Position numbers and translations under genes: made by a program. 64,000 nucleotides of DNA, taken from positions 2,560,001 through 2,624,000 of the forward strand of contig OY970355.1 of the NCBI GenBank assembly GCA_963718525.1. The letters run 5' to 3'. How positions within the stretch are numbered: position 1 is the first letter of the stretch; each line of letters begins with the position of its first letter. Shown one piece after another: positions 26,111-46,116 of this stretch. The DNA is from Candidatus Dormiibacterota bacterium. GTDB lineage: Bacteria > Chloroflexota > Dormibacteria > Aeolococcales > Aeolococcaceae. The notes under the pieces are model-generated. The model worked only from the letters and a program-made list of their open reading frames with translations. It was not told the DNA's origin and ran no database searches.

Positions 26111-26175
26111 GGCCCGGCATGATCCCTTGTCGCGAGGTCAGACGTCCGAATATCGACAGAACGTTCGCAGTGACG

Positions 26176-27285
26176 TCACATGGCGTCAGGCTGTGGTCGT
26201 TTCCGCCGGGAGCCGGCGCGCCAGGCCGCGAGGAGATCCTGCTGGGAGTGGACACCGAACTTCTGGAAGATCGCGCTCAGGTGGTTCCGCACCGTGCTCT
26301 GGCTGAGGTACATCTCGGCGGCGATGATGGCGACCCGCTCGCCCTGAGCAAGGCGAGACGCGATCTCCCACTGCCGCGGCGAGAGTTCCGCGCTGGGCGG
26401 GACCCCGAACACGCCGGCCCTCTCGACCAACGGCGCCATGACGCCTGTTGCCTCGATCTGCGACGCGAGACGACGGAGGTGGCCGGCGAGCTGGCTCGCA
26501 GCAGTGGAGTCCGGGACTCGGGGGTCTGTGGCGGCCGCGGCGATGAAGGAGAACGGCAGCGCCCCGTCGCCTTCAAGCACGGTGATGACTGCACGGACGG
26601 CTCGCCATCCGCGTTCCTGGCGCAGGCGGACACGAACATCGCTAGCGGGCTCGGTGGTGGCTCGAGCGAATGCCAGAAGCAGCGCGGCGAGGTCATCACG
26701 ATGGACGAGCTCGAGGATGGAACACCCGAGGAATTCGGCTGGGGGTCGGCCGAGGACCGCACCCGCGTTCGTGCTGATATTGGCGACCCGCCATCGGTCG
26801 TCGAGCGTGACCTGCGCGGCTTCAGCGTAGGCAGCCCTGTGGTTTCTGGGCGGCGACGTCATGACGTCCTCTCCGATCGACGGTGATTTGCCGGGTGCGG
26901 GCTCAAACGCGATCCACAGTCCGAGGTCTGGCCCCGAGCTCGAGCGGATCGCCCAGCCGCTTACCAGCAACTCGACCATCGATCCGTCCGGCCCGTGGAA
27001 ACGGCGCCGGCCATCGATCCCATCGAGCACCCGTTCGCGGACCAGGCGGAACGCCTCGGTCGCCTCGCGCGGGCGCTCCGTGACCGAGAGGTAGCTCGGA
27101 TCGGGACCGTGCTCAGGCGTGGCACACAACAGTTCTTCGGCGCGCTGTGACGTCTCAACCAGGCGATGGGTCGCCAGCTCGACCAACCCAACCGCCAGCG
27201 GGCTGGTACGCACCGCCTCCCGCCACATCGCAATCCAGCGACTCTGGCGATCGCCCCCCTCCCAGGTCCGGGAGATCCGCTCCAT
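26176..27285 (-). CDS. PAS-domain LuxR-family transcriptional regulator
   Basis: PAS-like segment (LGRPPAEFLGCSILELVHRDD); C-terminal LSPRQWEI...MYLSQSTVRNHLSAIFQKFGV. Confidence 0.85.
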   Translation of the reverse strand: MERISRTWEGGDRQSRWIAMWREAVRTSPLAVGLVELATHRLVETSQRAEELLCATPEHGPDPSYLSVTERPREATEAFRLVRERVLDGIDGRRRFHGPDGSMVELLVSGWAIRSSSGPDLGLWIAFEPAPGKSPSIGEDVMTSPPRNHRAAYAEAAQVTLDDRWRVANISTNAGAVLGRPPAEFLGCSILELVHRDDLAALLLAFARATTEPASDVRVRLRQERGWRAVRAVITVLEGDGALPFSFIAAAATDPRVPDSTAASQLAGHLRRLASQIEATGVMAPLVERAGVFGVPPSAELSPRQWEIASRLAQGERVAIIAAEMYLSQSTVRNHLSAIFQKFGVHSQQDLLAAWRAGSRRKRPQPDAM

Positions 27286-27328
27286 TGCTGTTGGTCGTCC
27301 TACCTGGTAACTTCGGTCACACACGCTG

Positions 27329-27340
27329 TGTCAATTGACA
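27329..27340. promoter_or_regulatory. Palindrome TGTCAATTGACA between divergent regulators
   Basis: Perfect 12-bp palindrome that gives TTGACA on both strands. Confidence 0.45.
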
Positions 27341-27399
27341 GCGTCCTATGACAGAATAACAGGATCGGCGCGGTCGGTGAAAGGCACCTTGAGCGGAGA

Positions 27400-28158
27400 A
27401 TGGGATACATGGCCTCGTCGCGGATTGCAGAGAATTTGAAGTCGGCGCGAGAGCGCATGGGCTGGAGCCGCGAGGCGCTCGCGTACCACTCCGGGCTCAG
27501 CTGGTCGGCAATTGCCCAGATCGAATCCGGCCGGCGACAGGAGATTCGCGTCAGCAGCCTGGTGGCGCTGGCCAGTGCCCTGGGAGTGAGCGTCGACTAT
27601 CTCGTCGGCGGTGCGGCCACCGTGTCGCCTAGGCTCCTCGGCCACAAGGCGTTCATCTACAGCTCGGACGACGAGTTCCTCGCTTCGGCGGTACCGTTTC
27701 TCGCCGAGGGCATCGAGCGCTCCGAGGCCGTGCTGGCCGTCCCAGCTGCATGGCAGCTCGACTTGCTTCGTGACGCGTTGGGGGACGCCGCGCACCACGT
27801 CGAGTTCCTGGAATCGGCGGAGTGGTATGAGTCGCTTCGCGGAGCCTCGCGCGGTTACCTGGATTTCGTCCGCGATCGATTCGTCAATGGGGCTTCGTGG
27901 ATCCGAATTCTCGGAGAGGCGACGTGGCTCGGGCGAGCCGAAGCCCCGGCGGCCGAGTGGTTTCGCTATGAGTCGATGATCAACATCTCGTTGGCCTCAG
28001 CGCCGGCCACGATCGTCTGCACGTACGACGCGCGATCTCTGTCCGACGACGTGCTCATGGATGCGCGTCGCACGCACCCGGAAGTTCTCGCCGCCGACCA
28101 GGTTGCGACGAGCCTGGAGTACCAACCGCCCGAGGACTTCATACTGACCCTGGGATGA
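27400..28158 (+). CDS. XRE-family HTH fused to a MEDS-like sensor domain
   Basis: LKSARERMGWSREALA...IAQIESG HTH; H-A-F-Y...FLAEGI, RILGE, W-RYES, VCTYD, THP MEDS motifs. Confidence 0.85.
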   Translation: MGYMASSRIAENLKSARERMGWSREALAYHSGLSWSAIAQIESGRRQEIRVSSLVALASALGVSVDYLVGGAATVSPRLLGHKAFIYSSDDEFLASAVPFLAEGIERSEAVLAVPAAWQLDLLRDALGDAAHHVEFLESAEWYESLRGASRGYLDFVRDRFVNGASWIRILGEATWLGRAEAPAAEWFRYESMINISLASAPATIVCTYDARSLSDDVLMDARRTHPEVLAADQVATSLEYQPPEDFILTLG

Positions 28159-28162
28159 CGTA

Positions 28163-28813
28163 GTGTGCTTCTCCGCCGAGGCCGATCTGGTCACGGGGGT
28201 CGTGGTGGGTGCTATCGGTGTCGATGCCCTTCGTCACGTCCGCAAACGCCACCAACTGGCGCTCGCAGCCACGCCGCTCCTCCTTGCGGTCCACGAGGTC
28301 GACGAGTTGTTCGTGTGGTGGGGACTCCACGGTCAGGTGTCCTACCAGGTCGAGCATGCGGCCATCTACGTCTTTCTGGCCGTAGCGTTCCTGCTGCCTT
28401 TCTGGGTGCCGTTCGCGATGCTCGGCGTGGAGACAAGGATCCATCGCCGCCGCCTGATGCAAGCGTTTCTCGTTGTGGGCACGATCACATCGGTGACGCT
28501 GCTCGTTGCGGTGGTCCGGGGTCCGGTTGGCGCAAGTATCGACGGGTCACATGTCGCCTATTCGGCAGACATCAGTTACGCGGACATTCTCGTTGTGCTC
28601 TACGTTATCGCCACGTGCGGCTCCTGCCTCGCGGCGAGCAATCGCTGGCTCGTCGTTCTCGGGCTCGCAAACCTCAGCGCCGTGATTGCGCTTGGATGGA
28701 TCACGTTCACCGGGTTCACGTCTCTGTGGTGCGCATGGGCGGCGCTGACGTCGATCGCGATCGTGCTCTATCTGCGCCGCTTCTCGACTGTCCAAGGGCT
28801 GGCTCCAACCTGA
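28163..28813 (+). CDS. Membrane protein of the MCFSAxAD type (DUF6629-like)
   Basis: MCFSAEADL N-terminus, H-E...VW, FTSLWCAWAA; about 6-7 TM segments. Confidence 0.75.
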   Translation: MCFSAEADLVTGVVVGAIGVDALRHVRKRHQLALAATPLLLAVHEVDELFVWWGLHGQVSYQVEHAAIYVFLAVAFLLPFWVPFAMLGVETRIHRRRLMQAFLVVGTITSVTLLVAVVRGPVGASIDGSHVAYSADISYADILVVLYVIATCGSCLAASNRWLVVLGLANLSAVIALGWITFTGFTSLWCAWAALTSIAIVLYLRRFSTVQGLAPT

Positions 28814-28858
28814 CCGGGCAACCCGTGCACTGTGCTACCGATCCTGGACACATACCTG

Positions 28859-29002
28859 CTCAGATTCGACTACAAACCACGCCTTTAGCGGGGAAACAAG
28901 AGAGAGATACCCGGCAAGCATCCCGGACCTGGCGCCGTGCTATGTCACCTTCGCGTTCTCGAGCGTCGCGAGCGTAATAGGGTGAGTTATCTACTCTGTT
29001 TC
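28859..29002. repeat. 5S-end att-like junction, copy 1 (core 28904-28917)
   Basis: GAGATACCCGGCAA core; CTCAGATTCGA about 45 bp before; TATCTACTCTGTTT 84 bp after the core start. Confidence 0.85.
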
Positions 29003-29254
29003 TGGACCGCCAAATCGGGGCCGACCAAGGGTCCGGTGACCACCTCACTATCGGTCGGTGCTGGGGTCGCTGGGAGCGGTGCGCATTTTGTTGGCCGGTG
29101 GGCCCTTCCGCTGGCGGGCGGTCGGTGAGGGTGCGTCGGGTCGCCGGGGACAGAGGTGCGATCTGCGGTCCAACGCTCCGGACCTAGGTCGACACGCGTC
29201 TCGACGCTCCGCATGAGCTGACGTCGAAGGAGACGTTCGACGCCTTTGCGCAGA

Positions 29255-29283
29255 TGTAACCATTGAGCACGGTTGCCGTTGAA
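29255..29283 (+). promoter_or_regulatory. Putative ECF-sigma promoter TGTAAC-N16-CGTTGAA
   Basis: Same motif occurs at 31581-31610; both precede ATGAAACTCACAACCATC. Confidence 0.55.
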
Positions 29284-29481
29284 GGGACGAAGGCAGACAT
29301 GAAACTCACAACCATCGTCCGACAGCAAGACGATCCGATGATTGCATCTTCGCCATCAGCCGGTCGCCCCGTCTCTCTTTCCCCCCAGATGGCGGGACCT
29401 TTGACAGTAGGAGAGGTGGCCACTGGCCCTGTTACGCAGTTACGGACAAGACGTAGGCTGCGATCTGGAGGTACAGGTGAG

Positions 29482-30777
29482 ATGCAACCCAGAAACCGAA
29501 GCCACCGTCATGGGTTGATCGCCACTTTGCCCCTGGCCTTACTTCTAGCCGCCTGTGGGGCCGGCGCATCGCCGAGCTCCCCTTCCCGCTCCACCCCGAC
29601 ACCCACTCCGGCCCCGGCGCCCAGCGTGCCTGCGACCACTCCGACGCCCAGTCCCACCCCGTCGGCATCTGTCGTTGCAAGTCCACTCGCCGTGGTCGGA
29701 TCCGAAAACGCCGGTATCGGGCCTTACACGCTCGGATTGGTGAACGCCAAGGGGGAAGTGGTGGCCACCGTGACTGCCAACACCCCTTCCGATTACCACT
29801 CGGTAGGTGGTGATCCTGGCATTACCAGTACCTCGGACAGCCGCCTGTACTACGAAGACGGGAACACCAACATTGACTACCTGACCGCGACGGGCCAGCA
29901 CGGGGTCGCTTTCACTATCAGCAGACCGACCGGCGCAGAAGTGGCGTTTGCGGTCAGCCCTGACGACACCCGGGTCGCAGTGGCAGTGCTGACCAATTGG
30001 GAGGACGCAACCGGCAACGGAGGTGAACCGCCTTACAGCTCGCACATGTATCTAATGGCTATGGGTGGTGGAATTCAGCAGACTCTGTTTGACGGGACGG
30101 GCTCGAGTAGCACCGCTCCCTTGACCTGGCCGGTAGGTTGGGATGGAGACAACCTGGTGGTGGCCCAGACCCTTCCGGGCGACTTCACCGGCTATTACCC
30201 CGGGACCGGTCCCTGCGCCATGGGAACGGATTGCAGCTCCCAGTTGCGGGTTTTCAACCCAGCCACCAGAACCTTAGGGCCTCCCCTCTGCGCCGAGGAA
30301 GCCGGAGTGATAACCATCGGAAGTCCGACCGCAGCCGGGATAGCCTGCATGCCTATCGGCACAGCCGGCGACCCCGCCAAGAAACTGGAATCAGTTTCCT
30401 GGTCGGGGGTGATCACCTCCTTCGGTACCAACATTCCGGGAAGTTGCCTGTTATCGCCACACGGAGCCGTCATCGCTTGTCCTTCAGACCTTGTCGAGGA
30501 CGCAACCGGGCAGCACACCATTCGGGCCCAAGCCTTCCGCGCCAGCGGGGTGGTGCAGAGGATCCCCAATCCTCTCGACTTCCAACTCATCGGTTGGATC
30601 GACGGGAATGACGTCGTGGTCACCACGGGTGGCAGCATTGCCCTGGGTGGCGAATTTGGCGGGCTGGCGGTGGAAAACATCGTGACCGGCAAGCGGATTC
30701 CCGTTTCGCTTGCGACAAGTCCCAATCCCTACAGTGTCCGGTGGCAGTTCTTAGGGGCGATCCCGGGAGCGCTATGA
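29482..30777 (+). CDS. Lipoprotein with a probable beta-propeller (WD40/TolB-like) domain
   Basis: Lipobox LAAC, PT-rich linker, FAVSPDDTRVAV, PVGWDG and LIGWID repeats. Confidence 0.8.
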   Translation: MQPRNRSHRHGLIATLPLALLLAACGAGASPSSPSRSTPTPTPAPAPSVPATTPTPSPTPSASVVASPLAVVGSENAGIGPYTLGLVNAKGEVVATVTANTPSDYHSVGGDPGITSTSDSRLYYEDGNTNIDYLTATGQHGVAFTISRPTGAEVAFAVSPDDTRVAVAVLTNWEDATGNGGEPPYSSHMYLMAMGGGIQQTLFDGTGSSSTAPLTWPVGWDGDNLVVAQTLPGDFTGYYPGTGPCAMGTDCSSQLRVFNPATRTLGPPLCAEEAGVITIGSPTAAGIACMPIGTAGDPAKKLESVSWSGVITSFGTNIPGSCLLSPHGAVIACPSDLVEDATGQHTIRAQAFRASGVVQRIPNPLDFQLIGWIDGNDVVVTTGGSIALGGEFGGLAVENIVTGKRIPVSLATSPNPYSVRWQFLGAIPGAL

Positions 30778-30963
30778 CCACCAAGGGGTCTCACGGAGCC
30801 GTGCGATAGGAGGACTGCCGCGCTCTGCGGGGGCGAGCTGGGCCATGAGCTTGACCAACTCCGCCGTCGGTGAGCCCGTCTCGCGCAGGACGTCATCGAA
30901 AGCGGTCGCCGCAAGGAAACATGCGTCCCATGCGGCAGCGTCATCACGCTCCGCGGCCCGATC

Positions 30964-31109
30964 CTCAGTTCCGAACACAAACAGCGCGAAATCGGAGGGG
31001 AAACAAAAAGGGAGATACCCGGCAAGCATCCGGGACTTAGCGCCATGCTAGCGTGTCCTCGGATCTCACGCGCCATGAGCGAGCGAGTCCGAACTATCTG
31101 CTCAGTTTG
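30964..31109. repeat. 5S-end att-like junction, copy 2 (core 31012-31025)
   Basis: Core, CTCAGTTCCGAACACAAAC upstream, TATCTGCTCAGTTT at +83. Confidence 0.85.
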
Positions 31110-31127
31110 GAGCTCAGGAGGCGAGCC

Positions 31128-31451
31128 TTGACTGAACCAGGGAACGTGTCCGAGCGATGGTATGACGCCAATGACATCGGCGGCCGAGCCGCCTTCTTCC
31201 GTGACCTCATAGCGATCTTTCGCAAGGACCACCCGCGCGAACCGCACTGGGAAAACCGTCAACGCCTCTGGCAGCTCATCGAGAAACACGGAGGAAGCCT
31301 GGACGGCCGCCCAACCTGGCTGCGCATCGTCTCCGAGATGATCGATAAGGATACGGTTGAGGTTAGGCAAACTCAGGAGGACGGCGCCTACAAACTCTTC
31401 AACTTCACAGCGGCGGAAACACGCGACCTGAGAGTCGGGCCGGCTCAGTAA
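31128..31451 (+). CDS. Hypothetical protein (about 107 aa)
   Basis: AGGAGG RBS before a TTG start, immediately inside the conserved element end. Confidence 0.55.
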   Translation: MTEPGNVSERWYDANDIGGRAAFFRDLIAIFRKDHPREPHWENRQRLWQLIEKHGGSLDGRPTWLRIVSEMIDKDTVEVRQTQEDGAYKLFNFTAAETRDLRVGPAQ

Positions 31452-31580
31452 CGCCGGGAAGGCAGCGCGAGAGCGGAGCTCGAGCACCGAACGTCTCCAG
31501 CGATGTGGCGATACGCGCGTCGTCACGCCGGCTGAGCTCGTCGATCACCGGTATGAGCACGTGCGACGCATTTGGTCGGA

Positions 31581-31610
31581 TGTAACCGTTCATGACGTGT
31601 TCCCGTTGAA
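31581..31610 (+). promoter_or_regulatory. Putative ECF-sigma promoter TGTAAC-N17-CGTTGAA
   Basis: Paralog of 29255-29283. Confidence 0.55.
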
Positions 31611-31625
31611 TGGGTGAAGGTCGAC

Positions 31626-32048
31626 ATGAAACTCACAACCATCATCAGCGCTGCGATCGCCGCCGCTGGCCTCGCCGCCTGTGGGTCGACAGCCACGCCG
31701 ACTGCGCGGCCAACCGTCACCCCGACAGTAGCGCCGACGACCGCCCCGACTGCTACACCTACTCCGGCGCCATCGCCCGTCCCGACACCTACACCTAAGC
31801 CTCAGCTAAGCGTCTACGTGACGACTACGTGTGGTGTGGCTGGCACGGCTCAGGGTGGAAGCGTCACGTTTCATGGAGTGAAGCCCGGAGAGTGGATGGG
31901 CTGGGGTTCTGATCCCGAAATCATGAAGTTCCCCACCGTTACATATGGGCCAGTGACCGTTGGACGTTGGTCGTGGAGTGTTTGGGATGATTCGAAGGTC
32001 GAGTTCGTCGCGCACGGCGCGTTCACCATCCCGGCTTGCCCGGGGTAG
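31626..32048 (+). CDS. Small lipoprotein with PT-rich linker
   Basis: MKLTTIISAAIAAAGLAAC lipobox. Confidence 0.8.
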   Translation: MKLTTIISAAIAAAGLAACGSTATPTARPTVTPTVAPTTAPTATPTPAPSPVPTPTPKPQLSVYVTTTCGVAGTAQGGSVTFHGVKPGEWMGWGSDPEIMKFPTVTYGPVTVGRWSWSVWDDSKVEFVAHGAFTIPACPG

Positions 32049-32239
32049 GCGTTACAGCGACTGCATCTGACAACTTGAAAACCGGCTAGGTCGCGGCCCT
32101 GCCTGCGGCTATCGAAGTCTGAGCAGCCCGACCTAGGGTTGAGCGCGTCGCCTGCTACGCGTTGATCGACCTCATCAGCCGCGTAGGCACATTATCGACG
32201 CTCCGAGCGCTGTGCTAGCAGGCCCGGAACGCGTATCCA

Positions 32240-32325
32240 CTCAGTTTCGAACACGGAGGCGGATCCGAGAAGCGAAAAACAAGAAAGAGATACCCGGCAA
32301 CGACCCGGACGCGTACGCCGTGGTA
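32240..32325. repeat. 5S-end att-like junction, copy 3 (core 32287-32300; identity to 5S extends through CGACC)
   Basis: AGAGATACCCGGCAACGACC; CTCAGTTTCGAACAC at -47. Confidence 0.85.
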
Positions 32326-32374
32326 ATGCTAAGCGAGGACTACGAGACGCACTGTGAATGAACCCGGCTTGGGC

Positions 32375-32980
32375 TCATCTGCCGATAGCAAGGGCGAGAA
32401 GGGTATTGACCGCAGTCTCGAACGGGCGGGTACTCCGTTGCACCTGGGCGAGTAGAAGTCCGCCTTGGAGCGTGGCGAGGAGCGTAGTCGCGAGGTCGTC
32501 CGGGTCGATCCCCGACGGGAGCTTCCCGTCGGCATGAAGGGATCTGAGTCCATCGCCGATGGCGGCTGCCCACTGATCGAACCCTGCCGCTATGAGCACT
32601 CGGGCCTCGGGGTCACACTCTGCCAGTTGACCACCGAGCGAGCCTAGGGGGCAGCCCCCCTTTGCTTTGGTGCGCTTCGCTTCGGTGATCACCATCTTCC
32701 GCCAGGCTTCGACTCCGTTCGCGCTGCGGAGCAACCGCCCCTGGTTATTGACGATGGCGTCGGCCTGGTAATCGATGACCGCCTGCACGAGTTCGTTCTT
32801 GTCGGGAAAGTAGTGGTACATCTGAGAGCCGCTGACTTCCGCCGCCACCTTGACGTCTTCCAAGGTGGTGCTCGCCACCCCGCGCTCATGGATCAGGGCG
32901 GCGGCCTCCTCCACTATTCGTGCCCGGGTGCGTGCTCCCTTGGGGGTGAGCCTCGGCCGGTCACTCATCTCGTTGACCAT
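32375..32980 (-). CDS. TetR/AcrR-family regulator
   Basis: TRARIVEEAAALIHERGVASTTLEDV...SQMYHYFPDKNEL; GGCPLGSL. Confidence 0.92.
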   Translation of the reverse strand: MVNEMSDRPRLTPKGARTRARIVEEAAALIHERGVASTTLEDVKVAAEVSGSQMYHYFPDKNELVQAVIDYQADAIVNNQGRLLRSANGVEAWRKMVITEAKRTKAKGGCPLGSLGGQLAECDPEARVLIAAGFDQWAAAIGDGLRSLHADGKLPSGIDPDDLATTLLATLQGGLLLAQVQRSTRPFETAVNTLLALAIGR

Positions 32981-33001
32981 GCACCAATGTTAGCAGGATT
33001 T

Positions 33002-33050
33002 TGAGTTTGACAACCCAGTCCGGACCTGTCAGAGTGGGTCGCACAACCCA
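33002..33050. promoter_or_regulatory. Two probable TetR operators overlapping a TTGACA -35
   Basis: TGAGTTTGACAACCCA and TGGGTCGCACAACCCA (TGRGT-N6-ACCCA inverted repeats) lie between the divergent tetR and SDR genes. Confidence 0.6.
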
Positions 33051-33076
33051 TTTTTTAGCGACAGGAGGCACATCGC

Positions 33077-33826
33077 ATGACCGACCTCAAGGGCAAGACC
33101 GCTCTGGTTACGGGCTCGACGAGCGGTATCGGCAAGGCGACGGCCATCGCCTTGGCCGCCCGCGGCGCTCACGTACTGGTGGTCGGGCGCAACGAACAAC
33201 GAGCCAAAGACGTGGTGGCCGAGATCGAAGGCAGCGGAGGCAGCGCAACGTTCCGGCTCACCACGTTGAGCGATCTGAAATCAGCCCACGAGCTGGCCGA
33301 ATGGGCCATTGAGGCAGGCGACGGTCATGTCGACATCCTCATCAACAACGCTGGCGTCGCCTTGCTCGGACCAAGCAACGCAGCCACCGAAGCAGACTTC
33401 GACGAGAGCTTTGCAGTCAACGTCAAGGTTCCGTTCTTCCTCGTCGCGTCACTGGCGCCAGCCATGGCCGAACGCGGATGGGGTTCGATCGTCAACGTCT
33501 CCACGATGGTCGCCAGCTTCGGACAGGCAGGCATGGCTCTGTATGGCGCCAGCCGAGCGGCTCTCGAACTGTTGACGAAGGCCTGGGCTGCCGAATACGG
33601 CCCGGGTGGTGTTCGGGTCAACGCCGTTGCCCCCGGCCCGACACGGACCCGCACGATGGAAGCAGTCCCTGAAGAGATGGTGAATCAGCTCGCAGCACAA
33701 GCACCAGCAGGTCGCGTAGCTCAGCCCGAGGAACTTGCTGCGGCGATCGTCTTCCTCGCCAGTGATGATGCCAGCTTCGTCCACGGCGTCACTCTTGCAG
33801 TCGATGGAGGCCGAGTAGCGACGTAA
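33077..33826 (+). CDS. SDR-family oxidoreductase
   Basis: TGSTSGIG, NNAG, YGASR (YxxxK with K to R), VNAVAPG, VDGG. Confidence 0.93.
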   Translation: MTDLKGKTALVTGSTSGIGKATAIALAARGAHVLVVGRNEQRAKDVVAEIEGSGGSATFRLTTLSDLKSAHELAEWAIEAGDGHVDILINNAGVALLGPSNAATEADFDESFAVNVKVPFFLVASLAPAMAERGWGSIVNVSTMVASFGQAGMALYGASRAALELLTKAWAAEYGPGGVRVNAVAPGPTRTRTMEAVPEEMVNQLAAQAPAGRVAQPEELAAAIVFLASDDASFVHGVTLAVDGGRVAT

Positions 33827-33896
33827 CGCTTGTCGGCGCGACGTTCAAGTGCGAAGACATAGAACAGATCGCAACCAACAACTGAGGAGTATCCAC

Positions 33897-34217
33897 ATGA
33901 GCGCATACGTAATTGTCGAATTCACGGTCAAGGACCCGGATGTTTATCGTGAGAAATACAGCCGCAACGCTGGACAGACGGCCAAAGAGCACGGAGGCGA
34001 GGCTCTCGCCAACAGTAACTGGGAGATCCTGCATGGCGATGGCTCGCTCACCTCAGGGGCACTCATGCGGTTTCCGGACCATAAGGCGGCCGTCAGTTGG
34101 TACAACTCGCCTGAATATCAGCAGCTGATCGATGTCCGAGGTGTCGCGATGGATGCCCGTTTCAGCTTGCTCGACGGCCTCCCTACGCGCACAGAAGAGG
34201 ACAGCACATCCCAATGA
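33897..34217 (+). CDS. DUF1330 family protein
   Basis: MSAYVIV...Y...HGG...FPD...WYNSPEYQ. Confidence 0.85.
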   Translation: MSAYVIVEFTVKDPDVYREKYSRNAGQTAKEHGGEALANSNWEILHGDGSLTSGALMRFPDHKAAVSWYNSPEYQQLIDVRGVAMDARFSLLDGLPTRTEEDSTSQ

Positions 34218-34309
34218 GCGCACTTCCAGGAAAGACGGTACTCATCACCAGCGCCAACGCCGGGATCGGCAACGATGTGGCCCGGCAACTGGCGTTTCGT
34301 ATCACTTAA
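34214..34309 (+). pseudogene. Truncated SDR N-terminus (31 aa)
   Basis: MSALPGKTVLITSANAGIGNDVARQLA, a Rossmann start. ATGA-coupled to DUF1330 and cut off just before junction 4. Confidence 0.7.
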
Positions 34310-34336
34310 TGACGCTTTTTGCGCAATCCTGCCCCG

Positions 34337-34474
34337 ACTGTTTTTGCACAAACGCCCAGCTTGGAAAACAAGAGAGAGATACCCGGCAAGCATCCACGCC
34401 TATGCGCTGTGCTTGTGCGACGAGACAATCTCAGACGCGGCGAGCGCGGAGGGCGCAGTTATCTGCTCTGTTTC
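34337..34474. repeat. 5S-end att-like junction, copy 4 (core 34376-34389)
   Basis: AAACAAGAGAGAGATACCCGGCAAGCATCC is identical to copy 1. TATCTGCTCTGTTT at +84, directly upstream of the recombinase. Confidence 0.87.
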
Positions 34475-34495
34475 AATCCGTCACCGAGGACCGTC

Positions 34496-35371
34496 ATGGC
34501 AACGCCAGCAGCCCCGGCCGTTTCCCGGCAATCTGAGCGCCGGCTCGCCGTCTCTCTCGACGTGGTGCGCGAGTACCAGGCCGCGAGCAAGGCTCCGGCC
34601 ACCACGCGGGCTTATGCCTCCGACTGGCGGCGCTTCACCGCCTGGTGCGACGACAGGGGCCTGTCGCCGCTCCCTGCTACTCCGGAGACCGTGAGTCACT
34701 ATCTCGCCGACGCGGCCGAGAACGGCTACCGGGCGGCGACCATCACCCGCTGGGCGGCTGCGATCAGCCAAGCGCACCAGGCGGCGGGACACGCGACCCC
34801 GACCGCTGCGCTCGAGGTGCGGGCTTGCCTACGTGGCATCCGCCGTACCCTCGGCACCGTGGGCCGCCAGGCCGCGCCGATCACCCCGGTCACCCTGCGA
34901 CGGATGCTCCGCCACGTCAGTCGGCGCAATGGTGAGCTGCGGGTCCTCCGCGACCGCGCGCTGCTCCTGGTGGGCTTCGCCTCCGGGCTGCGCCGCTCCG
35001 AGCTGGTCGGGCTGGACGTCGAGGACGTCGAGGAGACGGCCGAGGGTCTGATCCTCAACATTCGCCGCAGCAAGACCGACCAGGAGGGACAGGGACGCCG
35101 TATCGGCGTCTGCCACGGGCGCCACCACGAGACGGACCCGGTTGCCGCCCTGCGGGTCTGGCTCGCCGCCTCGGCAACTGACGCGGGGCCTATCGAGCGG
35201 TACAGCGGTCACTCTCTCCGGGCCGGCATGGCGACATCTGCCGCTGGAGCCGGTGCGAGCGAGGCCGCCATCACGGCGCAGGGCGGATGGCAGTCCGTAC
35301 AGATGGCTCGGCGTTACGTGCGGGACGGGCAGATCTTCCGCGTCGCCTCAGCGCTCGGACTGGGGCTGTAG
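34496..35371 (+). CDS. Cre-like tyrosine recombinase (SAM-like N-domain), probably with an internal deletion
   Basis: TTRAYASDWRRF, RDRALLLVGFASGLRRSEL (R), RRSKTDQ (K), GHSLRAG (HxxR), GGW (W), MARRY (Y). The segment normally found between GP(I/L)F and YSGHS looks about 30 aa short. Confidence 0.85.
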   Translation: MATPAAPAVSRQSERRLAVSLDVVREYQAASKAPATTRAYASDWRRFTAWCDDRGLSPLPATPETVSHYLADAAENGYRAATITRWAAAISQAHQAAGHATPTAALEVRACLRGIRRTLGTVGRQAAPITPVTLRRMLRHVSRRNGELRVLRDRALLLVGFASGLRRSELVGLDVEDVEETAEGLILNIRRSKTDQEGQGRRIGVCHGRHHETDPVAALRVWLAASATDAGPIERYSGHSLRAGMATSAAGAGASEAAITAQGGWQSVQMARRYVRDGQIFRVASALGLGL

Positions 35372-35440
35372 GCTTTCGGAGGGCCCATGAGGCGGGTGCT
35401 TCTACACCGCAGTCCCACGTCGTGCGAAGCCAACATCATG

Positions 35441-35812
35441 CTAGGGCAGCGGAGGTGGGGCGGGGATCTGCGCTGTGGCCTGAGCAAAGTCGTACCCGCA
35501 GGAACGGCAAACGGTGAGCCCCTTCTTCACGTCATTGCCACAACGCGGGCACTGACGGTGCCGCGGCCTGCTCATCAGCCATATCAAGCCCAGAACCACG
35601 AAACCGATGAACCAGATGAGAACGATCAGCGTGACGCCAATCCCGGCGCCAACCGCCGTCCCGGCTTGACAACCAGACAGTGCCCCGTCAGTCAGCCCCG
35701 CGCAGTTGTCGCTGGTGCTGGCGATTCCGGCGATCAGCCAGATGACGATAAGGACGTTGAATATGGCGAGCGCCCAGGTAGCCTTGCGCCAGTGGGGAAC
35801 CAGTCGACCCAT
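35441..35812 (-). CDS. Two-TM membrane protein with C-terminal zinc ribbon
   Basis: Two TMs, then CPRCG...VCRSCGYDF; GGAGG RBS. Confidence 0.75.
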   Translation of the reverse strand: MGRLVPHWRKATWALAIFNVLIVIWLIAGIASTSDNCAGLTDGALSGCQAGTAVGAGIGVTLIVLIWFIGFVVLGLIWLMSRPRHRQCPRCGNDVKKGLTVCRSCGYDFAQATAQIPAPPPLP

Positions 35813-35928
35813 TTTGACTTCACCTCCCTGGGATCAACGTCCCATCGGGACCGCACGATACGCACTGCCACGTCGAGCGTCAACGCGGTTGGCACTCGCC
35901 TGGCTCGTGGCAGACCACCCGTCACAAG

Positions 35929-35959
35929 AGAGGCCCTTGACGCGCTACCAAGGGCCTCT
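35929..35959. terminator. Perfect 11-bp hairpin (terminator-like)
   Basis: AGAGGCCCTTG-N9-CAAGGGCCTCT. Confidence 0.5.
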
Positions 35960-36114
35960 TAGGAAGGGATGAATTGCGGGATTCAGTGCATGGGCCATAG
36001 CCCTGCGGGCGACTGGCGGGTCGTTCAACGCCAGGGCTAACAGGGATGTTCTTGCCTTTCGCCCGGCCCCGAGCTACCAACATAGGTCGTATTGACGAGC
36101 CCTAGCGCGGGCGA

Positions 36115-36645
36115 TCAGCCCGAGAGACCCAGCTCGCCGCTGAGGGATGCATCGGCCGCCGTCAAGGCGCTCTGCGCGGGAGTCACCGTGTTGAAAATTG
36201 CGTTGTAGTTGCTGATGTTGTCTGTGTTCGCCGCAAGCGTGCCCATCACGTTTTCAAGCGCCGCGTCCGCGCTGAGAACGGCCTGAACATCTGCAGCGTC
36301 AGCTGGCGGGAACGTTATTGCTTGAACAGCGGTATCAAATGTTTGGCGCGCGCTGATCTGGGCATTGATGGCCGCAGCGGCTCCAGTCGGATCCGTAGAG
36401 GCCTTGTTCTGCTCCGCGATCTGTGCGTTGACAGCCGTGACCATTGCGTTGAAGGCAGTTGAATACGCGCTCGCAGCCACTAGCTCAGCGGCGGCCGCTG
36501 ACGCCGAGCTGTTCGCGGCAGCTCCGCCCGCGGAGCTTGCCGACGAGATGGCCGAGGGCGGCGATCCGCCGCACGCGACGATAACCACGGTTGCGGCCGA
36601 CGCGACGAACCCCACGATGACCCAGCGTTTCACAGTCGTCGCCAT
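36115..36645 (-). CDS. Ala-rich helical lipoprotein
   Basis: Lipobox IVAC; GGAGG RBS. Confidence 0.75.
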   Translation of the reverse strand: MATTVKRWVIVGFVASAATVVIVACGGSPPSAISSASSAGGAAANSSASAAAAELVAASAYSTAFNAMVTAVNAQIAEQNKASTDPTGAAAAINAQISARQTFDTAVQAITFPPADAADVQAVLSADAALENVMGTLAANTDNISNYNAIFNTVTPAQSALTAADASLSGELGLSG

Positions 36646-37033
36646 CGTCGTTACCTCCAATCCCCTATCGACCGAATTCCCGTCGAGACGGCGACGACGA
36701 CCGTCGTTCTTGAGGATCGCCCCGCCGATCGAGAAGCGCCTGGATTGCCTTCATGTGTCTGTTCGGCATCCTACGAACCGGCCAGGTCTAATCATTGCCC
36801 GCGATCTTGATGTGACACACCCTGGGTCACTCGCCTGCGCCCTCCGTCCCCTAGGGAGCGATCGCCGCCGCGAGAAACCACCCGATGCCGACCGCTGTCA
36901 TCCCGACACCGCTGCGCTGCTTCATGGCTTGGCTACCTTCCTTGAAGTCTCAGCCAACCGAACGAGCCCCGGTGCCGGCGCCGAACTGACCCTGGTTGGA
37001 GAGCGCTCCACGTCGCTTTTCGGATCCCGGCAA

Positions 37034-37843
37034 TTAGCTCTCGGCGAACCAATAGTCTAGAAAATCCGTGTTCGATGGGCCTCCCTCACCGACTGGACCC
37101 GGAGCAGCAAGATTGTACGTCCCCGACTGATTGATCATGTTGATGCCGGTGTACGAGAAGAAACCGATCCCCAACTTCTTGCCGCCCGCCGTCGCGTACG
37201 CGGAGGAGAATCCAATCTGCTCCTGGGCCGTCGTGTTAGACCACTCAGCCAGATTGCCGATCGAGCCGCCATACGTGGGCGCTTCACCGATCCACTCGGC
37301 AGAACTTCGTGTGCAGGTCAGCCCTGAGGCACAAGTCTGAGTAGTAGAAAACGAATGCCTGTGCGCCGTAGTCGTGTCGTTGACGACAATTTTGAACTTT
37401 CCACTTGCGTAGGTGACGCTTGCCGTGATGGAGTCGCCGGGGAACACGCCATAGGCGATCTGAATGTCGTTGGTCGGATACATCTCCCACCAAGCGTAGT
37501 AAGAGGGACTCGTGCCCGAGCAGTACGCATAAGTACCGCCCTGCTCGACTGTATTATCGCTGAAGCCATCCAGGCCAACCCAGAATGCATGGGACTCGTT
37601 GACGGTCCCGAGGCACGTCGCCTTGGGCACCTTCCACTTCGCCGTGACGAACGTGAATCGCTTTGCCGAGGCGGAGGCGGCGGCAAAACCCGACCAGTTG
37701 TAGCTGGTCACCCCTCCCGGCCCACCCTCGCTTCCGGGGATGTTCGCACCACTCCGGGCAGTTGGAACTGATGGTGCGGCGGCGAGTGTAAGGCTGGCGA
37801 GAGCCACGGCCAAGCCGAGCGTTCCGGGGATGATCCGTTTCAT
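37034..37843 (-). CDS. Secreted G1-family glutamic endopeptidase
   Basis: Signal peptide; SYNWSG, WVGLDG, EQGG (catalytic Q), WWEMYP, SAEWIGE (catalytic E). Confidence 0.9.
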   Translation of the reverse strand: MKRIIPGTLGLAVALASLTLAAAPSVPTARSGANIPGSEGGPGGVTSYNWSGFAAASASAKRFTFVTAKWKVPKATCLGTVNESHAFWVGLDGFSDNTVEQGGTYAYCSGTSPSYYAWWEMYPTNDIQIAYGVFPGDSITASVTYASGKFKIVVNDTTTAHRHSFSTTQTCASGLTCTRSSAEWIGEAPTYGGSIGNLAEWSNTTAQEQIGFSSAYATAGGKKLGIGFFSYTGINMINQSGTYNLAAPGPVGEGGPSNTDFLDYWFAES

Positions 37844-38119
37844 GTGCCTCCTAAGCTGGTCGTACTCGCACCGACTTGCTCTGAAGAGACTGGGTGACCG
37901 TTGCGAGCAACCAGAATCCCTCCCGACTGCGCCGATTATGCGGGATCGCGTTAGCGGTTGGCGCATCCCGACCGCATGAGCGCCACCACGAGCAGACCTT
38001 TCTTGATCATTACCCCAACCCAGGTAGCTCGGTGCGCCTCAGTTAGCGATGCCGTTCAACGGGTCTTTGGTGATGGACAGTTCCCCGGGCGGCTGCCGCG
38101 GATTGGGCGGCGTGACTCT

Positions 38120-38580
38120 TCACAACGGCCAACGGCGGGCAGTAGTAGCCCTGAATTTCGTCGTCCCAGCGGACACCTCCGCAAATGCGCGATCGTCGGC
38201 CTCCTCGGCCCTCGCTCTGAGGACGAAGTAGGCTCGCCAACGCATATGGGGCGGTTTCCCCGGGAAGGGCACGAGGAGACTGGCGGATCCTCCCATCCGC
38301 AGCCGAATGGCCTGAGCACGTGTGATGGCTCGATCCCCAGCCGTAGCCCGCTGAGATGCATAGACGAGACGGTGGCAGTTGCGGCAGCGGAGAGTTCCCG
38401 CGAGCTGGTACAGACGGATCGCACGGCAGCCGCACCCCGGGCAGAGCCACCAGGCACGCTCGCCCCCGAAGGGGCACGGCGTGTACGAGATCTCCACCGC
38501 GCCCTCCCGTTCGGCGTAGCGGCGATGGTGCCACAGGCGAATATCCAGGACGGGGCAACTTTCGACAGTTAATGGCGTCC
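38120..38580 (-). CDS. MGE-associated zinc-finger hypothetical protein, probably 5'-truncated
   Basis: TPCPFGGERAWWLCPGC...LY...RCRNCHRLVYASQ and KPxxMRWRxY, a pattern I associate with phage satellites and ICEs. Confidence 0.65.
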
Positions 38581-39094
38581 CGTACCTGGGCCACTGACCC
38601 GATCCTAAGCCGCCCCTTTCACCGAAATCTTCTGAGTTTCGACGCGAGCCCGGATTTGCTCGAGGAGCCGCAGACGAGACATCGATGGTGCTCGGGGCCA
38701 TCGCCAGGGACCACGCTATTGCTCCCTACCTGAGCGATAAGTGAGCGCTATCGGGCGGGATGAGCCACGCCAACGGGAGCCTTGGTTGGGCGACCAAACT
38801 ATGTCGCGACACTACAACAGATGTGTAGCACCATTGCCAGAAGCTCCGCGGCGCGGCTCATGCGGTTCTGCCGTCCATCGGGTCCGCCGCCAGGGGTCAG
38901 CGTCCATAGGGACTGGCGCCCATCGACGGTTCCAGCAAGGGTCGGACCAGACAACCAGACACCCTTAAGTGACCACTTGTCTGTCTGGTTGGTCAACTGC
39001 GCCCCAGAGGGGGCTACTGCCCCCCGCTCTCTGAGGCTCCGCGCCAGGTCGTGTCGTGTCTGTCTGCCAGACATGTCTGGTGCCGTTTTCGTAT

Positions 39095-39880
39095 TCACGC
39101 GACACCCCCGAGCCCTATTTGTCTGGTACGTGTCTGGTTAGCGTCGTCGAAGGCCGCGAGCGCCCATTTGGTGGGCTCGGTGCCGGGTACGGGGACGAAC
39201 AGCCGGCCAGACATCCTTTTGAGGGTTGTCCGGACGGTTTCGGTGTTCGCGTCGAGGTGATCGGCGATGTCTGCGACGGTGCGGGGCGACGTCTTCAGGA
39301 GTGCGCGAATGCGGGCTTTGAGCGGCATGGCGCCGGCCAGGTCGGGAATGCTGGCGATGTCGGCTCGCGTGATCGTCGTCTTGGGCTCGAACTCGAAGTG
39401 CAACGCGAACGGCTGGGCCTTGGTGCCGTCGTTGCTCTTCTTGCTGGTGAGCGCAAGGTCGAGCCGCGGTGATCCCGGCTCCTGGGACGCCTTGACGAAC
39501 CAGGTCAACCGGGCCGAGTTGTGCCAGAAGGTCGAGCCGAATGGTCGGTCCTCGTCGCCACCTCTGTTGATGTGGGCGAGCAGACAACTCCCCACCTCGA
39601 GGCGGGACAGAGCTTGGAAGAAGTCGAGGCAGACGCCGGCGCCTTCGGGAGGACCGGCACAGGCGAGCGCGACGGAGTCGAGGAAGATATACCGGATCTC
39701 GTGCTCGTGGATGATGCGTTGCAACCGTTCCACCTGGGCGCTCAGCGGTCCCTCGCTCGCGCAGGGGACGTACAGCACCGAGGGCAGCGGAGCACCGTCC
39801 CCACACAGGGCGCCCATGCGCCGGCGGTGGGGGGCGGCTCGCCACTCGAAGTCCAGATATGCGGTCTTCAACCGTTGCGA
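39095..39880 (-). pseudogene. AAA_25/RepA-like SF4 helicase C-terminal part plus HTH, lacking Walker A
   Basis: AYLDFE, Walker B IFLDS, LLAH, FGSTFWHNSAR, KSN; C-terminal HTH. The 5' end abuts the 5S junction. Confidence 0.7.
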
Positions 39881-39930
39881 GAGGGGCAGACCCAAAGGCC
39901 TCACGTTGAGGCGAGATACAAAAGAGAGAT

Positions 39931-40047
39931 ACCCGGCAACGACCTACTCTCCCACCCCGTTGCCAGGGCAGTACCATCGGCGCTGGTGGGCTTAACTGCT
40001 GTGTTCGGGATGGGAACAGGTGTTTCCCCACCGCTATGATCACCGGA
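39931..40047 (-). rRNA. rrf: 5S rRNA
   Basis: CATAGCGGTGGGGAAACACCTGTTCCCATCCCGAACACAGCAGTTAAG...GCCGATGGTACT...GGGAGAGTAGGTCGTTGCCGG; flanked by complementary GAGAGATA / TATCTCTC. Confidence 0.97.
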
Positions 40048-40542
40048 TATCTCTCTCATGACGAGTGAGAACGCGAGTCTGGTCCACGGAAGCGGCGTCG
40101 CGCCGTCCGTCGGAGAATCCTAGTGCGCTACTTCGAGCGCTCTTGCCAGGCGTTGCACTTTCCTGCGGCGCCACCCTTGGCGCCATCCCACTAGTCGCTG
40201 AAAAGTGGGATAGGAGGTCAAGCCCTCGACCGATTAGTACCGCTCAGCTCAAAGAGTCACCTCTCTTACACCCGCGGCCTATCAACCAGATGGTCTCTCT
40301 GGGGTCTTACCCGGTTATCCGGTGGGAGATCTTATCTTGGAGTGGGCTTCGCACTTAGATGCTTTCAGCGCTTATCCCATCCGGACATGGCTACCCAGCG
40401 ATGCTCTTGGCAGAACAACTGGTGCACTAGCGGTCCGTCCAACCCGGTCCTCTCGTACTAAGGTCAGCTCTCCTCAAATCTCCTGCGCCCACAGCGGATA
40501 CGATCCGAACTGTCTCACGACGTTCTAAACCCAGCTCGCGTA

Positions 40543-40579
<37 letters not shown>

Positions 40580-40583
40580 ACTC

Positions 40584-40625
<42 letters not shown>

Positions 40626-40655
40626 TGCCGTCGATGTGAACTCTTGGGCAAGATC

Positions 40656-40692
<37 letters not shown>

Positions 40693-40849
40693 GACGGCCT
40701 TTCCATTCAGAGCCGTCGGATCACTATGCCCGACTTTCGTCCCTGCTCGGCTTGTCGGCCTCACAGTCAAGCTCCCTTACGCCATTACACGCCAAGGCCT
40801 GATTTCCATCCAGGCTGAGGGAACCTTTGGGCGCCTCCGTTACCGTTTG

Positions 40850-40882
<33 letters not shown>

Positions 40883-41161
40883 CCACGGTCCCGACACCGG
40901 ATAACGGCGCCGGTTAGAAATAAAATCCAGCAAGGCTGGTATTCCAAGGTTGACTCCACCGAACCTAGCGGCCCGACTTCACAGTCTCCCAGCTATCCTC
41001 TACATGCTGGACCCCATTTCAGTGGCAAGTTATAGTAAAGCTCCACGGGGTCTTTCCGTCCTGCTGCGGGTAACCTGTATCTTCACAGGTACTTCAGTTT
41101 CGCCGAGTACGTGGCCGAGACAGCGCCCATCTCGTTACGCCATTCGTGCGGGTCGGAACTT

Positions 41162-41919
<758 letters not shown>

Positions 41920-43355
41920 ATTTCAGAGCTTGCACCCCTCCACTTAACCTTCCGGCACCGGGCAGGCGTCAGCCCCTATACGTCAGCTTACGCTTTAGCA
42001 GAGACCTGTGTTTTTAGTAAACAGTCGGATGGGCCTTTTCTCTGCGGCCCTCGTCAGCTCACCGAGTAAATCGGATCACCGCCAAGGGCTCCCCTTCTCC
42101 CGAAGTTACGGGGACATTTTGCCGAGTTCCTTAGCCACGTTTCCCTCGATCGCCTTGGAATCCTCTTCCCACCTACCTGTGTCGGTCTGCGGTACGGGCG
42201 CCGTGGTTCTCGCTAGAGGCTTTTCTTGGAGGCATGGAACCGGCCCCATCGACACGAAGTGTCTTGGGATCCTTCTCGGAGTTAATGTCAAGCGGATTTG
42301 CCTACTTGACCTCCTACAAGGCTCCGTCGGGGACAACCGTCGCCCCGTCAGGCCTATCCTTCCCCGTTCCCCCATTGCTGATAACGAACCAGCGGCGGTG
42401 TTGGAATGTTGACCAACTGTCCATCGCCTACGCCTTTCGGCCTCGGCTTAGGTCCCGACTGACCCTGGGTCGATTAACGTAGCCCAGGAAACCTTAGGTT
42501 TACGGCGAACACGTTTCTCACGCGTTTCTCGCTACTTGTGCCGGCATTCTCACTTCTGTCCGCTCCACCCGTCCTTACGGTCAGGCTTCGCAGCAAACAG
42601 AACGCTCCTCTACCACGACCTTCCTGTGAAGGAAGGCCATCCACGGCTTCGGTTGCAAGCTTGAGCCCCGATCATTGTCGGCGCCACGACATTCGACCAG
42701 TGAGCTGTTACGCACTCTTTAAATGGTGGCTGCCTCTAAGCCCACATCCTGGTTGTCTGGACACCGTGACATCCTTTTCCACTTAGCTTGCGATTTGGGA
42801 CCTTAGCCGGTGGTCTGGGCTGTTTCCCTTTCGACGATGAAGCTTAGCCCCCACCGTCTCACTGCCGCCGGAAAGTTTGTTGCCATTCGGAGTTTGGTTG
42901 GGTTTGGTAACGAGGTGATCGCCCCTAGCCCATTCAGTGCTCTACCGGCCACAAACCCATCGACGACGCTGCACCTAAATGCATTTCGAGGAGAACCAGC
43001 TATATCCGAGTTCGATTGGCATTTCACCGCTATCCACAGTTCATCCGCCGCATTTTCAACTGGGGTCGGTTCGGGCTTCCACGCGGTCTTACCCGCGCTT
43101 CACCCTGACCATGGATAGGTCACTCGGTTTCGGGTCTACTCCATGCGACTACCACCACCATTACAGTGGTCACGCCCTATTCAAACTCGCTTTCGCTACG
43201 GCTCCGGGTGTCAACCCCTTAACCTCGCCACATGGAAGTAACTCGCCGGCTCATTCTACAAAAGGCACGCAATCAGGCATTCCCACTAGGGGCATAGCCC
43301 TCTCACGGCTTGTAAGCACACGGTTTCAGGTACTTTTAACTCCCCGTCTGGGGTG

Positions 43356-43401
<46 letters not shown>

Positions 43402-44607: not shown

Positions 44608-46116
<1,509 letters not shown>

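Follow-up and report, generated by a model that had tools for sequence, protein, structure and literature searches.

The 3′ end of a single-copy 5S rRNA gene as a probable attachment site for tandem tyrosine-integrase elements in a soil lineage of Dormibacterota

RESULTS

The 5S 3′ end is repeated along an array of four units

We analyzed a stretch of 64,000 nucleotides, hereafter the window, from the genome of a Candidatus Dormiibacterota bacterium (assembly GCA_963718525.1, contig OY970355.1, positions 2,560,001 to 2,624,000 of the forward strand). Four units, A to D, lie there in a row next to the 5S rRNA gene and are bordered by copies of the 5S 3′ end. Very probably, the 3′ end of this single gene serves as the chromosomal attachment site (attB) of tyrosine-integrase elements, like the 3′ ends of tRNA and transfer-messenger RNA (tmRNA) genes elsewhere. 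A prediction made from the letters of the window alone, hereafter the original prediction, had proposed the 5S gene as attB with units stacked in tandem. This proposal is supported by a matched pair of empty and occupied sites in two relatives, by the position of unit D between unit C and the 5S gene, and by the confinement of a conserved arm sequence to the 5S flank. Further support comes from repeat cores that match the 5S variant of each host, and from a 5S-linked subclade within an integrase family otherwise linked to tRNA genes.

The repeated element is the 14-mer GAGATACCCGGCAA, hereafter the core. The original prediction had it five times in direct orientation, and exact matching confirmed this, with starts at 28904, 31012, 32287, 34376 and 39926 (window positions), all on the plus strand. 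Allowing up to one mismatch added no match in the window, 0 of 100 shuffles gave any match, and the whole genome, a single contig of 3,336,189 bp with 66.3% G+C, contains no copies beyond these five. The cores all face one way and are contained in 11 kb, the end of which is the 5S gene.

Rfam identified an intact 5S gene at 39931 to 40047 on the minus strand (RF00001; full model matched, 107.3 bits). The genome has no other 5S gene, and this one ends the sole rRNA operon, which is on the minus strand and consists of 16S (44609 to 46118), tRNA-Ile, tRNA-Ala, 23S (40214 to 43916) and 5S. Core copy 5 (39926 to 39939) comprises the final 9 nt of the 5S gene and 5 nt of its trailer, in agreement with the earlier description of this copy as the 5S 3′ end plus a strand of its processing stem. 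The block that it has in common with the other copies reaches about 10 nt further left (ACAAAAGA). Core copy 4 (34376 to 34389) marks the distal junction of unit D, and copies 4 and 5 form a perfect direct repeat of 17 bp around that unit, or of 22 bp with one mismatch. Copies 3 (32287 to 32300) and 2 (31012 to 31025) mark the distal junctions of units C and B, respectively, and copy 1 (28904 to 28917) is the outermost junction; in copy 3, 19 nt match the 5S sequence (the core plus CGACC). All these copies are on the plus strand. To the left of copy 1 are a DUF6629 gene (28163 to 28813), a hairpin and a CTCAGATTCGA motif, and we take the DNA on that side as the original chromosomal flank. ARAGORN detected no tRNA or tmRNA gene at the junctions.

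Flanks of rRNA operons are often misassembled in metagenome-derived genomes, which raises the question of whether the array is an assembly artefact beside the operon. We consider the chance of this negligible. The repeats in the array are at most about 110 bp long and merely 75 to 87% alike, and comparable arrays are present in other assemblies. Moreover, short-read contigs that were assembled independently bridge all five junctions; they come from three runs of one soil study and cover the region at approximately 16× (8× in the third run). They extend from 26000 to 28989, 28991 to 31325, 31913 to 32381, 34169 to 39948 and 38116 to 40373, and the fourth spans unit D as a single contig without a gap.

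A conserved arm accompanies the cores

The motifs that the original prediction had described around the cores were all recovered at their offsets. The A-rich trailer AAACAARAGA, of about 10 bases, stands directly left of all five cores, the 5S copy included; CTCAGwTyCGA is found at −45 to −48 in copies 1 to 3; and GCATCC..GCGCyrTGCT followed by TATCTrCTCwGTTT (at about +84) lies right of copies 1, 2 and 4. The latter motifs are part of a conserved arm of approximately 100 bp to the right of these three cores, in which the fixed blocks GCATCC, GCGCCGTGCTA, ATCTCG-N7-CGAGCG and TTATCTGCTCTGTTT are separated by variable spacers. In unit A, the layout, of the type of an element's own attachment site (attP), is GCATCC..GCGCCGTGCTA..CTCG-N7-CGAGCG..TTATCTACTCTGTTT. 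The arms occupy 28918 to 29003 in unit A (nhmmer, 97.6 bits; E 1.1e-25 with R1, our sequence-only covariance model of the arm), 31026 to 31111 in unit B (87.6 bits; R1 E 4.4e-23) and 34390 to 34475 in unit D (89.4 bits; R1 E 1.1e-23), all on the plus strand, and copy 3 is followed by a shorter, diverged version to about 32329. As the original prediction had noted, the conserved end at copy 4 leads into a tyrosine recombinase gene: the arm stops 22 bp before the start codon of the open reading frame (ORF) at 34496 to 35371.

The ends of the arm and the trailer-plus-core sequence form an imperfect inverted repeat of 14 to 16 nt, AAACAnGAGnAGATA ... TATCTnCTCnGTTT, and many cores have a related motif about 50 bp to their left. 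We read these motifs as putative protein-binding sites. Hairpins followed by T-rich runs stand left of several cores; a terminator scan of 28500 to 40100 returned 7 sites, with 7.2 expected.

Relatives show empty and occupied 5S sites

A 5S gene was found in 30 of the 42 genomes of the genus, and we took up to 20 kb downstream of it at all 30 loci outside the host genome (29 genomes). The distance from a conserved anchor, formed by a tRNA-Leu gene and neighbouring genes, to the 5S gene ranges from about 1.5 kb in one genome (G016) to 13.7 kb in the window, and the DNA in between varies by genome; relatives are therefore not identical in gene content here, as the content differs among the 30 loci. 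Seven loci carry extra exact cores, and at 13 the 5S core is accompanied by one or more arms, which are oriented alike relative to the 5S gene in every case.

The comparison of empty and occupied 5S 3′ flanks suggested by the original prediction yielded a clean pair. At the empty site (genome G007), the flank runs directly into the core and the 5S gene. The occupied site (G012) shows the same flank, 89% identical to that of G007, followed by a core, a unit of 2165 bp, a second core and the 5S gene.

Unit C provides a second comparison. It is 95.4 to 95.6% identical over about 2 kb in three relatives (G033, G012 and G019), in each of which its right end meets the 5S core, and a fourth (G010) has a 1495-bp part of it, 94.4% identical, about 640 bp from the 5S core. 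In the window, the right end of unit C abuts core copy 4, and unit D follows. Because unit C abuts the 5S gene in the three relatives, unit D appears to be a precise insertion between unit C and the 5S gene. Relatives of unit B also adjoin the 5S gene, in G020 (90%) and G025 (79%).

The neighbouring chromosomal genes of the species that bear unit C are 70 to 77% identical to those of the window, compared with approximately 95% for unit C itself, and in the soil contigs unit C reaches a depth of 100 to 790×, compared with about 16× for its flanks. The high identity and the excess depth argue for a recent move of unit C between species. Unit C bears different arms in different genomes, and homology among its copies starts at 32350 to 32352, within or past the arm rather than at the core. 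Left of 32352, the unit C contigs of all four soil runs have one common sequence unlike that of the window; the widespread soil form of unit C therefore has a left end other than that of the window copy.

Arms are confined to the 5S flank, and their cores match the host 5S variant

In the host genome, the arm profile matched the five sites only, the next matches having E values of 0.67 and 0.76. The R1 model found 17 strong arms (E ≤ 3e-15) in 10 of the 42 genomes of the genus. Sixteen of them are downstream of the 5S gene on the contig that carries it, and the 17th is in G009, in which no 5S gene is assembled. Rather than being scattered irrespective of the 5S gene, all arms that could be placed in the genus thus lie downstream of it. 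Throughout the order (151 genomes), arms occur in 19 of 106 genomes of the window's family, in five genera, and in 0 of 44 of the sister family.

Two of these genomes belong to other genera and have the 5S gene assembled. One, G082, carries three arms downstream of the 5S gene, at 4.7, 6.1 and 13.5 kb, and the other, G107, a single arm 8.1 kb downstream. The 5S end is GAGATATCCGGCAA in G082, where the cores of all three arms are identical to that variant, and GAGATACTCGGCAA in G107, where the single arm-linked core is likewise identical to its host's variant. A match between core and host 5S variant is expected if half of each junction core derives from the resident attB. Core typing left out one arm (L184, contig G143:C199), the core position of which, approximately 7336 to 7358, reads N.

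Two integrase lineages stand beside the cores

The recombinase of unit D (34496 to 35371, plus strand; 291 aa; PF00589 and PF02899) belongs to the RRSKTDQ family, hereafter type i. Its closest relatives are two metagenome proteins, with 83% and 68% identity, one of them on the contig L078. The L078 integrase is intact and is 79% identical (tblastn) to P0003, the closest relative of the window integrase, and the order on L078 is the same as in the window: core (a CTC variant), arm and integrase. Between 2832 and 6613, L078 also encodes two defence-type proteins as cargo, a restriction-modification enzyme resembling MmeI (955 aa) and a nuclease of the Mrr type (305 aa).

A second lineage, type ii, is found beside the 5S gene in other genomes. 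In G107, an intact XerC-like integrase of 309 residues begins some 90 bp away from the 5S core and reads away from the 5S gene, a frameshifted integrase of this type occupies the same position beside the 5S gene in G034, and G082 has truncated integrase remnants beside two cores. Among 117 genomes of the family, 31 have homologues of type ii (E ≤ 1e-20). Our examination covered 29 loci and did not include one from an unpublished genome. The 3′ end of a tRNA gene faces the integrase start at 22 of these 29 loci and a 5S gene at two, with neither at the remaining five. In a maximum-likelihood tree, which is indicative only, given a short search and some fragmentary rows, the 5S-linked type ii sequences group together (Shimodaira-Hasegawa-like approximate likelihood ratio test, 91). 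This group nests in a clade with 99% support, the other members of which accompany genes for tRNA-Gly, -Gln, -Thr, -Phe and -Arg. The host genome itself has a distant member of the family (36% identical) beside a tRNA-Arg(ACG) gene, at 1500956 to 1501723 of its contig (L212), which is probably a conventional tRNA-linked island.

One relative ties the arm itself to a tRNA gene. On a 3.3-kb contig of G021 (L187, G021:C170; features at 1660 to 2510 and 3197 to 3272), two arms that stand 665 bp apart have no 5S core and are joined instead to the antisense 3′ half of a tRNA-Ile gene, beside a tRNA-Ile(GAT) gene and with the same geometry. Because these arms carry a tRNA-Ile core, the arm would thus behave as a portable attP arm.

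A model of serial integration at the 5S gene

These observations can be accommodated in the following model. attB and attP would share about 22 to 24 bp, comprising the last 9 to 14 nt of the 5S gene and some 10 to 12 nt of trailer. On integration, this block would be duplicated, with the 5S gene left intact and the element inserted between that gene and the DNA that had followed it. Each element would also bring the arm of about 100 bp, which lies to one side of the core and is presumably where proteins bind attP. As further elements integrated at the intact 5S copy, older units would have been pushed outward to give the order A-B-C-D-5S; unit D would be the newest, and it alone retains an integrase gene. 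The other three units would be remnants left by deletions in autonomous elements, or else non-autonomous units that need an incoming integrase, and decay would have followed serial integration. Frameshifted and truncated integrases beside cores in G034 and G082 indicate that the decay of autonomous elements also yields units without an integrase; mobilization of such units in trans is plausible as well, as the original prediction had it, and their well-kept arms and the near-identity of unit C across species would fit it. Cargo could also move by homologous recombination through 5S/23S and arm sequences held in common. We infer from sequence comparison the recombination itself, the order of insertion, the identity of the integrase lineage that reads the arm, and the loss of activity.

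Several results weigh against the use of the 5S gene as attB. The window integrase has an in-frame deletion of 37 residues between GPI and ERYSGHSLR, and no activity is demonstrable for it. The deletion site lies between the β-hairpin lysine region and the HxxR motif and is filled in all seven aligned homologues; at the DNA level, the same gap of 111 nt appears relative to L078, the nearest full-length relative, and the gap-free short-read contig has the deletion as well. The deletion spares the catalytic residues R, K, H, R and Y. A defective integrase had been half expected in the original prediction, and alignment confirmed the internal deletion. A genome-wide search of the host found no second copy of the window integrase family, and no close copy of either 5S-linked lineage occurs elsewhere in that genome. 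With 37 residues lost and no close copy to replace the enzyme, the window array is most likely immobile now. In the contigs of the four soil runs, none joined across a unit at the cores, and no excised circle or restored empty-site joint was found, although contigs drop rare forms. Two candidate joints, 28950 to 34363 and 28763 to 33740, were disregarded as weak, with sides of 20 to 21 nt.

The link between type i integrases and the 5S gene is also narrow. Placeable type i integrases beside an arm number two, in the window and on L078, and no 5S gene was found in the 10 kb downstream on L078. The type i profile gave no match at 29 of the 30 relatives' 5S loci and one weak match, and the type ii profile matched there in G034 only. 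The original prediction had suggested that homologues of the 34496 recombinase might lie next to 5S genes; this did not hold for distant homologues, and close ones are too few. Among 118 loci of distant homologues (33 to 57% identical; from Alicyclobacillus, Bryobacterales, a Dormibacterota metagenome-assembled genome and others), none was linked to 23S or 16S by blastn, a search that recovered all 30 of the relatives' loci used as positive control, that a lone 5S gene in a distant phylum could escape, and in which one 40-nt match was spurious. Any tRNA gene was present at 18 of these loci, and the arm profile had a match near one of them, L078. Rfam searches of 20 of the 22 metagenome homologue loci (without L093 and L096) found no 5S gene and one tRNA gene. 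Because the distant loci lie away from rRNA genes and are without the arm, the 5S link of type i appears to be confined to a narrow subclade and is represented by two elements.

Two further points tell against integration at the 5S gene. Two unrelated integrase lineages accompany what seems to be one arm family. The 5S-adjacent flanks of many relatives carry a CTCAGTTTCGAATAC motif and a hairpin, which may be either native or element DNA, so that some of the sites that we call empty may hold old remnants.

Alternative explanations

Another possibility, to which we give a minor share of the probability, is that the small units (0.5 to 2.2 kb, one to three genes) are true non-autonomous cassettes and the arm of about 110 bp is their recombination site, with an integrase supplied in trans that inserts and shuffles them at the 3′ end of a stable RNA gene, an integron-like function. 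Most units, in the window and at the relatives' loci, are indeed small and without an integrase, with spacings of 513 to 2165 bp predominating, and the arms are of full length, with conserved blocks and variable spacers, which looks more like constraint than neutral decay. The near-identity of unit C in four to five species, its excess depth and its different arms would fit such a system, as would the arms with a tRNA-Ile core in G021, which delimit two units of about 0.7 kb. It is similarly unlikely, but conceivable, that 5S and tRNA-Ile 3′ ends together anchor integron-like cassettes that integrases of two unrelated lineages, supplied in trans, have moved between species. Neither integrase is of the integron type, however. 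The best score with TIGR02249 (NCBIfam) was 53 bits, by type ii, for a cut-off of 265, and type i had no match; against NF040815, the sole matched model with integron in its name, type i scored 28 to 29 bits for a cut-off of 220. The arms do not fold clearly better than shuffles, with z values of +0.19 to −2.09 in nine folds of single-stranded DNA, and compensatory changes are nearly absent: RNAalifold on 15 arms found them in 0 of 16 pairs on the 5S-sense strand and in 1 of 15 on the other. Gene orientation is mixed within units, unit C has its own regulator, and the damaged integrases beside cores in G034 and G082 document decay as a source of units without an integrase.

Arrays might also arise in the absence of any site-specific recombination, if copies of a 5S trailer or terminator module were spread by homologous recombination or gene conversion at a hot spot beside the rRNA operon. 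The 5S and 23S genes, 98 to 100% identical across the genus, would offer a strong one-sided anchor of homology; the start of unit C homology away from the core and the recurrence of the trailer motif and hairpin left of many cores point the same way. We nevertheless hold this explanation to be improbable, because two lineages of tyrosine integrases stand directly beside cores, one of them from a clade otherwise tied to tRNA 3′ ends, because the boundaries of unit D fall exactly within the shared 17 to 22 bp, and because the arm is not rRNA-operon sequence and is also found fused to a tRNA-Ile fragment. Still less probable is a reading in which the arms, on the 5S strand, represent genes for small RNAs or pseudogenes resembling 5S that have its 3′ end and processing signals. 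Each arm does end in the 5S 3′ terminus and then a T-rich trailer, and a CCGGG/CCCGG hairpin is conserved. However, the arms match no Rfam family, the covariation term on the 5S strand is close to 0, and the folding and compensatory-pair results given above speak equally against RNA genes.

Cargo of the units

Units A, B and C have a core and an arm and, by two profile searches, no integrase. Unit A (28918 to 31011, 2.1 kb) has a single long ORF at 29263 to 30777 on the plus strand, with a probable ATG at 29299. This ORF has no match in Pfam, PHROG or NCBIfam; a language-model protein search returned, as a lead only, β-propeller-like hypothetical proteins of Ca. Dormibacterota and Chloroflexota. 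Unit B (31026 to 32286, 1.3 kb) has two ORFs on the plus strand, one of 132 aa (31053 to 31451) and one with a lipoprotein-like N terminus (31614 to 32048). The earlier statement that each interval carries unrelated cargo does not hold for units A and B, which have in common a stretch of 88 bp with 80.7% identity (29233 to 29319 and 31559 to 31646, plus strand) comprising the upstream region and first codons of an ORF (MKLTT...). Unit C (32301 to 34375, 2.1 kb) contains a divergent TetR regulator gene (32375 to 32980, minus strand) and genes for a short-chain dehydrogenase (33077 to 33826) and a DUF1330 protein (33849 to 34217), both on the plus strand.

Unit D (34390 to 39925, 5.5 kb), nearest to the 5S gene, has two recognizable cargo genes on the minus strand. 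One encodes a peptidase of the A4 family (37034 to 37966; PF01828, E 1.4e-26). The other, at 39095 to 39904, encodes an AAA_25-type ATPase (PF13481, weak, E 9e-4), of a kind common in phages and plasmids, and starts 22 bp from core copy 5; this ORF had no match in NCBIfam and, compared with AAA_25 clusters of a protein atlas, a feature score of 0.97 with 225 of 256 features in common. A PHROG search of 10 cargo ORFs gave a single weak match, to a family without known function. The G+C content of the region is about 0.57 to 0.65, below the genome mean, with the exception of the integrase gene at 0.70 to 0.735.

Other features of the window and genus

The 23S gene measures 3703 nt, compared with 2925 positions of the model, an excess of about 780 nt. 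Soil contigs of other community members skip 40052 to 40216, 40376 to 40443 and 40705 to 40813 and have loose ends at 40505, 40705, 40831 and 40892, which suggests that the extra sequence consists of insertions specific to the lineage or of intervening sequences. At 50095 to 50360 on the minus strand, the genome encodes a signal recognition particle RNA of the large (Bacillus) type (185 bits). Even complete single-contig genomes of the genus score only about 89 to 90% complete on marker genes, which fits a poorly sampled lineage.

DISCUSSION

The 3′ ends of tRNA and tmRNA genes are the usual landing sites of tyrosine-integrase islands, which duplicate them on integration and can accrete in tandem. 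Integration was reportedly classed by Williams in 2002 according to sublocation in the RNA gene. The array described here belongs with the tRNA-type islands and differs in the class of its target. Like them, the window element encodes a tyrosine integrase at one end; its attachment site extends into a small stable RNA gene at the 3′ end, and the gene stays intact through the copy of that end which the element carries. Direct repeats flank the element, its presence varies among relatives with boundaries at the repeat, and the type ii integrase clade is otherwise found beside tRNA genes in the same geometry. In contrast, the target is a 5S rRNA gene at the end of the sole rRNA operon, just 9 to 14 nt of the gene belong to the shared block, the rest being trailer, and the element is placed between the 5S gene and the DNA formerly downstream of it. 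Unlike in intact islands of the tRNA type, the window integrase is internally deleted. The original prediction had regarded 5S as a target not known to be described for tandem islands; our search of the full-text literature, with subscription journals and supplements outside its view, likewise found no report of a bacterial element that integrates into a 5S rRNA gene.

Rows of units at one attB, with attachment-site-like repeats between them and an integrase in only one, recall accretion arrays and cis-mobilizable elements (CIMEs). The CIMEs of the ICESt1/ICESt3 family of Streptococcus thermophilus are flanked by attachment sites and have no recombination genes. The integrase-less units of the window similarly keep attachment sequences and could leave together with a neighbour. 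They differ from the CIMEs of that family in the absence of conjugation genes, in their very small size and in an arm that is common to at least five genera.

The array also shares features with integrons, namely, small units with varied cargo, a repeat of about 60 to 140 bp that resembles a recombination site and has inverted-repeat ends, and a content that differs strongly between close relatives. The arms have terminal inverted repeats of about 14 to 16 nt, and by their z values they appear to lack a stable single-strand fold of the attC kind. Unlike integrons, the array has no IntI-type integrase, and its anchor is an RNA gene and not attI. The mixed orientation of genes and the unit C regulator likewise set the units apart from integron cassettes.

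In eukaryotes, Ty3-type elements target genes transcribed by RNA polymerase III. There too, the 5S region is a safe and conserved landing site, but the elements use reverse transcription or tethering by RNA polymerase III factors, and their hosts have many 5S copies. Zebrafish 5S repeats are reported to host sequence-specific retrotransposons without long terminal repeats (PMC5340908).

A bacterial 5S gene used in the manner of tRNA and tmRNA 3′ ends would represent a target class that is apparently undescribed. Since the 5S case nests within a tRNA-using integrase clade, it would therefore be a natural example of retargeting between stable RNA genes. Such elements would escape island finders that either inspect tRNA and tmRNA genes alone or exclude rRNA flanks by masking. 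In a host with a single rRNA operon, every insertion replaces the DNA just past the 5S gene, which raises the questions of read-through from the strongest promoters of the cell and of tolerance to changes in the 5S trailer. The integron-like explanation, if true, would amount to a second, independently evolved way to build arrays of gene cassettes. Regulators and enzymes are among the genes that the arrays carry, as are restriction systems in a relative, and one unit has clearly spread between species; the site would therefore be a genuine path for gene flow in a soil lineage about which little is known.

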